64,000 bases of DNA from IMG/VR virus record IMGVR_UViG_3300025141_000018; one strand, 5' to 3'. The position numbers were made by a program, and so were the translations under genes. Below the pieces are notes generated by a model. The model did no database searches. It was given only the letters and a program-made list of their open reading frames with translations, and was not told the origin of the DNA. Each line of letters begins with the position of its first letter. Within the stretch, counting starts at the first letter, position 1. Shown one piece after another: positions 5,497 through 5,815 of the stretch. This stretch comes from a virus (taxonomy: Duplodnaviria; Caudoviricetes).

Positions 5497-5815
5497 AAAG
5501 GTTGATTCTGTTTCCAGGTTCAACCTTTAAAACCCACTAAATTATGCGGCTAACGCCATTGCATAATTAGGACTATACTCTGCATTGTTTGCAGTTATTG
5601 TTAATACAGTCTCTCCGATGCATCATTACGCTGTCGAAATCTATTTCGCCCCCATCAGCGAAATACAACATCTAAAATCCATATTAACCCTCCGGAGCCC
5701 AATAAAATTACAAAGGCCCAAAATAGGTTTTGATTGCTCATTGTTGTACCTCTCTGGTGGAGGCGGGCGGTATCGCACCGCCGTCCAAACGTCGTCAACA
5801 AAGTGTCATCGACCG
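5497..5815 (-). ncRNA. ssrA: Circularly permuted (two-piece) tmRNA; tag ANNAEYSPNYAMALAA*
   Basis: Acceptor piece ends ...GGCGGTGCGATACCGCC-CGCCTCC-A-CCA at 5755; coding piece starts GGGGGCGAAATAGATTTCGAC at 5653; G3:U70 pair and A73; TAACT precedes the resume codon GCA; tag ORF 5592-5542; outer ends are approximate. Confidence 0.92.
5655..5741 (-). CDS. 28-aa single-TM peptide in the tmRNA intervening segment (MSNQNLFWAFVILLGSGGLIWILDVVFR)
   Basis: SD GAGAGG directly after the CCA, ATG at 5741, stop TGA ending 1 nt before G1 of the coding piece. Confidence 0.6.
   Translation of the reverse strand: MSNQNLFWAFVILLGSGGLIWILDVVFR

Follow-up and report, generated by a model that had tools for sequence, protein, structure and literature searches.

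The 64-kb stretch of DNA analysed here (the window) carries on its minus strand a circularly permuted, phage-encoded tmRNA gene, and the spacer between the two pieces of this RNA contains a 28-codon reading frame that has been kept under purifying selection in diverged relatives. We regard it as highly probable that the phage locus encodes a functional two-piece tmRNA of alpha-like type, and that the spacer serves in addition as a small messenger. The nested frame, which was missed in an earlier note made on this DNA from its sequence, is the most unusual element of the locus. The features discussed below are the following.

5836-6264: 142-aa ORF, flanking gene upstream of the tmRNA
5820-5828, minus strand: GTAAATATA motif, candidate promoter element just upstream of the tmRNA, conserved in relatives
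5755-5815, minus strand: acceptor piece of the tmRNA (5' strand of P2, T arm, 3' acceptor strand, A73, encoded CCA), from the Rfam start at 5811, the sequence and co-folding; the 5' end at 5815 is approximate, as the Rfam match begins at 5811
5766-5782, minus strand: T arm, GGCGG / loop UGCGAUA / CCGCC, from the sequence, Rfam and stem covariation
5782-5778 and 5770-5766, minus strand: T stem, from the sequence
5777-5771, minus strand: T loop TGCGATA, from the sequence
5765-5759, minus strand: 3' acceptor strand CGCCTCC, from the sequence
5758, minus strand: A73, from the sequence
5757-5755, minus strand: encoded CCA, from the sequence
5654-5754, minus strand: intervening segment (spacer) of 101 nt, between CCA (5755) and G1 (5653)
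5749-5754, minus strand: Shine-Dalgarno-like GAGAGG, directly after CCA and 7 nt before the ATG, from the sequence and haplotypes
5655-5741, minus strand: nested micro-ORF, 28 codons plus TGA, MSNQNLFWAFVILLGSGGLIWILDVVFR, from haplotype comparison
5497-5653, minus strand: coding piece (5' acceptor strand, D-loop analogue, 3' strand of P2, tag frame, terminal hairpin), from the sequence and Rfam
from 5653, minus strand: 5' acceptor strand GGGGGCG, from the sequence
5542-5592, minus strand: tag reading frame, ANNAEYSPNYAMALAA plus TAA, from ARAGORN
5592-5590, minus strand: resume codon GCA, from the sequence
5544-5542, minus strand: tag stop TAA, from the sequence
5497-5528, minus strand: 3'-terminal hairpin with a 9-bp stem and loop motif ACCUGGAAACAGAA, from the RF01849 3'-end alignment and folds
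5248-5475: 75-aa membrane protein, flanking gene downstream of the tmRNA
4543-5217: Hydrolase_2 cell-wall hydrolase, after the gene for the 75-aa membrane protein

ARAGORN called a permuted tmRNA at 5451-5849 (minus strand; tag ANNAEYSPNYAMALAA*), and the Rfam model RF04321 (tmRNA_permuted) matched 5542-5811 on the same strand over its full length (model positions 1-213; 78.4 bits, E = 2.4e-13), above the gathering threshold of 47 bits. These results confirm the circularly permuted tmRNA proposed in the earlier note, whose coordinates all proved correct when the minus strand was read. In that reading, the T arm, the 3' acceptor strand and CCA precede the 5' acceptor strand, and the two acceptor strands pair as a 7-bp stem containing G3:U70 and A73, the alanine identity elements previously named. 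When the two predicted pieces were co-folded, the acceptor stem formed between them over 7 bp, together with the T arm and a P2 helix of considerable length, in keeping with a tRNA-like structure. The loop motif ACCUGGAAACAGAA of the terminal hairpin is conserved in alpha-type tmRNA (RF01849 alignment). The window was also said to lack smpB, and no SmpB domain (PF01668) was found among its 81 ORFs of at least 70 aa.

The carrier is an uncultured, jumbo-type marine phage. The window encodes a T4-type large terminase, a 907-aa tail sheath, DnaB-like and other helicases and a class II ribonucleotide reductase, nearly all of its genes lie on the minus strand, and GC is even (0.30-0.40). The large terminase is 53% identical to that of the Pseudomonas PA5oct group and 46-49% identical to those of Agrobacterium phage Atu_ph07 and Sinorhizobium phage Phosso. 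We found identical junctions and layout at the tmRNA in nine contigs representing four haplotypes (IMG/VR, TARA and other metagenomes), and all sampled words across 5300-6000 were present in DNA runs of at least 10 studies. These observations bear on the suggestion that the tmRNA is a host fragment mis-assembled to phage DNA, or a recent and decaying passenger. Genes for tmRNA are common integration sites, hence fragments of them occur in prophages (PMC9004378), and one related phage (L124) is without the tmRNA. Against this stand the nine independent contigs with the same junctions and phage genes on either side, the recurrence of the region across studies, the even GC, and the intact state of all parts of the gene. 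In addition, the T-arm and acceptor pattern GGACG-NN-GGUGCGAUACC-NN-C-NN-CCUCCACCA was found in more than 118 IMG/VR contigs, compared with only 2 of 185,579 bacterial species genomes (both Alphaproteobacteria). The locus is not a chimera, an outcome that the earlier note had held open, and we consider an origin as a misplaced or decaying fragment to be extremely improbable. In the relative L124 (L124:3001-3500), the same two flanking genes are adjacent without the tmRNA (78% identity in the upstream protein), and the tmRNA is therefore accessory and dispensable, with the tmRNA-plus-ORF unit coming or going as a whole.

The spacer between CCA and G1 opens with the Shine-Dalgarno-like GAGAGG, followed by an ATG at 5741 and a frame that closes with TGA (5657-5655) one base before G1 of the coding piece. 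The product, MSNQNLFWAFVILLGSGGLIWILDVVFR, is hydrophobic (Kyte-Doolittle mean of 2.18 over residues 6-27), and is predicted to be a single-helix membrane peptide. Both the 101-nt length of the spacer and the start and stop of the ORF are intact in all four haplotypes, with no indel across the 101 nt at up to 25% divergence. When the window is compared with its relative L114, the mature parts differ at 0/60 and 3/163 positions and the spacer at 17/101. Within the four haplotypes and 25 variable ORF columns available for these statistics, pN/pS was 0.06-0.25 in the ORF frame versus 0.4-2.6 in the other two frames, and the variable columns fell on the three codon positions as 8/3/14. Purifying selection was thus seen in this frame only.

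A spacer may also be conserved for its structure, and we weighed the reading that the ORF is untranslated and that selection maintains a precursor hairpin capping the acceptor stem for RNase P, with the frame as a by-product. The spacer fold is indeed stable (-26.9 kcal/mol, z = -2.17), and an 11-bp closing helix (spacer positions 3-13:85-95), predicted to pair the Shine-Dalgarno region with the last codons of the ORF, occurs in the minimum-energy fold of each haplotype. The changes within this helix comprise one compensatory pair (A-U to G-C at 4:94), two one-sided changes that still pair and one break, in a comparison limited to four haplotypes. On the other side, the inner helices of the spacer are repeatedly broken among haplotypes, whereas the excess of third-position changes, the mostly synonymous nature of changes in one frame only, the Shine-Dalgarno sequence at the right distance and the lack of indels are features of a coding region, and an unrelated family of 177-nt spacers (see below) gives the same coding signal. 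Hence, as judged from sequence comparison, the pattern is better explained by coding constraint than by structure alone; a purely structural role for the spacer is unlikely, and the closing helix may have a genuine regulatory role.

The 28-aa peptide had no PHROG family match. A degenerate DNA pattern for the peptide core matched only this phage group and one chance sequence without a tmRNA (L135); accordingly, there is no known free-standing copy of the peptide. Neither did the literature searched contain a description of a protein ORF in a tmRNA intervening sequence.

To place the nested ORF among other tmRNAs, we compared the spacers of 120 viral loci, which comprise 68 distinct spacers among the matches listed. 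Within this set, 25/68 distinct spacers are at most 54 nt long and without an ORF, and 28/68 (about 40%) are at least 101 nt long. All but one of the long spacers (27/28, among the matches listed) start an ORF of 21-57 codons, 26 of them with ATG. These ORFs belong to several unrelated families, with Shine-Dalgarno matches that range from strong to weak. The best-populated second family has a 177-nt spacer and encodes a 44-aa membrane peptide with its stop one base before G1, and its pN/pS is 0.20 in frame versus 1.2-2.0 out of frame. The selection test was run on these two families; in four further spacer-ORF families the distinct copies were too few for it.

Members of the 44-aa family are L004, L027, L042, L052, L053, L060 and L100 (177 nt) and L025 (159 nt), and some copies have, further upstream, a shorter ORF that overlaps the main one and has a strong AAGGAG site. 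At other loci, drawn from several families (L013, L014, L016, L032, L043 and others), the spacer frame stays open beyond the RNase P site and enters the mature tmRNA, where it ends either on the conserved UAG of GAAAUAGG (+13) or further on (+42). Such messages would be without a stop codon after cleavage.

Bacterial spacers were 5-55 nt long in 29 of the 30 best matches parsed (the other being 73 nt), in contrast to the 101 nt with an ORF found here. No ATG-started ORF with a Shine-Dalgarno sequence was found in the 16 longest bacterial matches, including three with spacers of more than 100 nt.

The tag frame also carries the marks of a sequence that is read. It resumes on the alanine codon GCA and ends in ALAA, a hydrophobic end of the (A/L)AA degron type. 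Changes among the four haplotypes are synonymous (AAC/AAT, AAT/AAC, CCT/CCA and GCG/GCA), apart from one conservative E to D replacement, and such a substitution pattern fits a translated tag. Within the collections scanned, the ANNAEYSPNYAMALAA tag occurs in this phage group only, in agreement with the earlier proposal of a tag of its own. The accompanying suggestion that this tag retargets proteolysis was set aside, as the ordinary ALAA degron end is kept. The tag also helps to assess whether the RNA instead acts as a decoy, by titrating host SmpB or by inhibiting trans-translation in the host. A precedent exists in mycobacteriophage DS6A, which encodes an RNA consisting of the tRNA-like domain (TLD) alone; a decoy role was proposed for it, and a similar molecule inhibits tmRNA in E. 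coli (PMC4131195). The apparent loss of pseudoknot 1 (see below) could be seen in the same light. However, a decoy would hardly account for a full tag frame in the usual resume-codon context with an ALAA end, nor for substitutions in the tag that are synonymous or conservative, and we consider this role very unlikely compared with that of a tagging tmRNA.

Two metatranscriptome contigs from separate studies fall on the coding piece. One (167 nt) spans only 5478-5641 and is identical to the window, and the other (152 nt) covers only 5497-5643 and is a 92% relative that corresponds to the L121/L122 haplotype; the downstream gene is covered by other contigs of those same RNA libraries. These contigs give a weak hint that the coding piece is a discrete, stable and abundant RNA, bearing in mind that RNA-library contigs cannot define RNA ends and that DNA may contaminate RNA libraries. 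The spacer and acceptor piece are without an RNA-library contig, and such holes prove nothing. A contig ending at 5816 comes from a run that is probably DNA and was left out of the RNA evidence.

The RNA departs from the bacterial alpha subtype in its core. RF01849 (alpha_tmRNA), the sole subtype model listed for the locus, scored 40.5 bits against a gathering cut-off of 50; membership was rejected on this basis, and we use the term alpha-like instead. In the alignments to both models (RF04321 and RF01849), the pseudoknot-1 region shows deletions and non-standard pairs, and the interval from P2 to the resume codon GCA measures only about 24 nt, with no pseudoknot 1 recognized before that codon. 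Together, the sub-threshold RF01849 score and the deletions and non-pairs in this region indicate an unusually compact RNA, in which pseudoknot 1 seems to have been lost.

The T loop provides a further point of separation. The earlier note had pointed to TGCGATA as an oddity of this gene; the loop is present, although it is a signature of the alpha-like group of more than 118 viral contigs that share the T-arm and acceptor pattern, not a peculiarity of one gene. Among the 118 viral relatives in the matches listed, the two variable T-stem pairs are complementary in 9/9 variants, and acceptor pair 6:67 changes from C-G to U-A without exception (78 versus 40 copies). G55-C56 is shared with the T loops of Alphaproteobacteria (GGCRGUA). 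Our bacterial sample comprised 151 Alphaproteobacteria, 146 of which had a match over the cut-off (a tally that includes the unpublished genome G042, on which none of our claims depends). GGCRGUA or a close variant was present in 41/43 parsed alphaproteobacterial genes, and UGCGAUA in 2/43, these being only the two genomes found via the pattern itself. In a tree of the tRNA-like parts, a comparison that the earlier note had called for, the four haplotypes of the window's tmRNA group with viral sequences on a long branch, and the 41 sampled bacterial genes cluster elsewhere with the gene from Phosso; the tree rests on few columns, and its viral set was chosen by T-loop pattern. As far as these sequences can tell, the viral UGCGAUA tmRNAs form a lineage of their own, as opposed to being recent copies taken from hosts.

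The genes around the tmRNA add to this picture of the carrier. Genes for Hsp20 (220-702), S21 (852-1079) and IF3 (1058-1591) are adjacent on the minus strand about 4 kb downstream, all within 5 kb of the tmRNA, and form a translation and proteostasis cluster that resembles those of huge phages and Atu_ph07-like phages. Upstream lie genes for a 98-aa SET-domain protein (6298-6594, minus strand) and a PAAR-motif protein (8815-9105, minus strand). In Phosso, too, a PAAR gene is found two genes upstream of the tmRNA, a hint of loose synteny. The window further contains a three-tRNA cluster (59087-60071, minus strand; Asp-GTC, Thr-TGT and Tyr-GTA) and a match to the Rfam freshwater-2 RNA motif (28500-28574, plus strand; 58.2 bits, cut-off 49.9), which lies on the strand opposite to most genes; the phage itself is found in marine metagenomes. 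The proteins encoded directly upstream (142 aa) and downstream (75 aa) of the tmRNA had no PHROG family match, and blastn of the locus against 50,697 phage records returned no match.

The GTAAATATA motif just upstream of the tmRNA is kept in all relatives, including the tmRNA-less L124. GTAAATAT is also found at about 60090-60097 (minus strand), approximately 20 nt upstream of tRNA-Tyr, so two of the three copies on the gene strand precede stable-RNA genes, and the motif may act as their promoter element. In a sigma-70 scan the single good match was at 6301-6272, which lies upstream of the gene before the tmRNA, with counts not above those of shuffles, and TATAAATA-type late-promoter motifs were not enriched on the gene strand.

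The earlier note regarded permuted tmRNA as mostly bacterial and overrated the novelty of this one. Two-piece tmRNAs have been published for phages, making up 53 of 133 unique phage tmRNAs, with 50 of the 53 being aquatic (PMC9004378), and a curated tmRNA database holds 79 phage sequences. The tmRNA of the window is thus one more case of a published type, and the nested peptide gene is the part for which the literature searched offered no description. The published examples in aquatic T4-like phages (Methylophilales phage Melnitz and Pelagibacter phages) are likewise phage-encoded, permuted, alpha-like and marine, with no smpB reported beside them (PMC9004378). They differ from the window in their carrier, which here is jumbo-type with a terminase nearest to the PA5oct and Atu_ph07/Phosso groups, and in that no Rfam match to a glutamine riboswitch was found at the window's locus. 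Neither a spacer nor an ORF within it is mentioned in the Melnitz paper (PMC9004378). Compared with the Caulobacter-type tmRNA of RF01849, the gene order, G3:U70, A73 and CCA, G55-C56, D-loop analogue, resume context and conserved 3' hairpin loop (ACCUGG-AACAGAA) are the same, whereas the T loop is UGCGAUA in place of GGCRGUA and the pseudoknot-1 region is largely deleted.

Huge phages have also been reported to carry tmRNA with translation genes, some with SmpB as well (PMC7162821), and the same repertoire occurs in Atu_ph07-like jumbo phages, such as Sinorhizobium phage AP-J-162 (PMC11242549). The window shares with these a large phage carrying tmRNA plus S21, IF3 and Hsp20, but no SmpB was found in its 64 kb. 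By terminase, Phosso is a cultured relative. We identified an unannotated alpha-type two-piece tmRNA in Phosso (L188:954-1643; PV764938.1 at about 349553-350242, minus strand) in a 750-bp gap between CDS 479 and 480, which ARAGORN missed. This RNA scores 108 bits with RF01849, has the tag ANDNVSTKVALAA, the T loop GGCGGUA and a 410-nt spacer in which no clear ORF and no Rfam family were found. Since it is of the bacterial alpha type, as its score and T loop illustrate, it is not a close relative of the tmRNA in the window.

Genes located in excised parts of tmRNA do have precedents, namely group I introns in the T loop and a tRNA-Ala in a permuted intervening sequence (PMC11915505). The 2025 tmRNA database paper describes intervening sequences with a tRNA-Ala gene and a repetitive element, and no protein ORF (PMC11915505). 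These inserts resemble the present case in that a separate gene sits in the removed stretch; the difference is that here it is a micro-protein gene led by a Shine-Dalgarno sequence.

Taken together, we propose that a single precursor would be transcribed from the minus strand, cut by RNase P before G5653 and trimmed at its 3' end to the encoded CCA at 5755. Such processing would leave two RNAs, the acceptor piece (about 60 nt) and the coding piece (about 157 nt), which would stay joined through helix P2 and the 7-bp acceptor stem, with the 101-nt spacer absent from the mature tmRNA. Host AlaRS would charge the RNA with alanine via G3:U70 and A73, and host SmpB and EF-Tu would deliver it to stalled ribosomes, which would resume on GCA and append ANNAEYSPNYAMALAA. 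The ALAA end would then hand the product to host ClpXP-type proteases, and the tmRNA would keep ribosomes free during infection. The 28-codon ORF would be translated, from either the precursor or the excised fragment, into a single-helix membrane peptide, and the predicted closing helix over the Shine-Dalgarno sequence probably limits this translation. Our guess is that the product is an accessory membrane peptide in a strongly transcribed slot, possibly tied to the downstream lysis genes. The link to lysis is suggested by its position directly upstream of the small membrane protein and the cell-wall hydrolase; the tmRNA-less relative L124 keeps both of these genes without the peptide.

The tmRNA itself adds a further case, from a jumbo-type marine phage, to the known phage ribosome-rescue RNAs, and the nested gene is the more useful part of the finding. 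On balance, we favour the view that the spacer of two-piece tmRNAs in aquatic phages is a general micro-protein expression slot, used here for a 28-aa peptide. Maturation of the RNA and synthesis of the peptide may be coupled, since the stop codon abuts the predicted RNase P site and the closing helix would mask the ribosome-binding site. If the slot reading is true, one transcript would serve as both the precursor of a stable RNA and a messenger, released by tRNA-processing enzymes, and tRNA-type processing would be a route to a very short and precisely bounded mRNA. If such spacers are routinely used, a whole class of small phage genes would escape standard annotation, because these loci are labelled as RNA or left blank.
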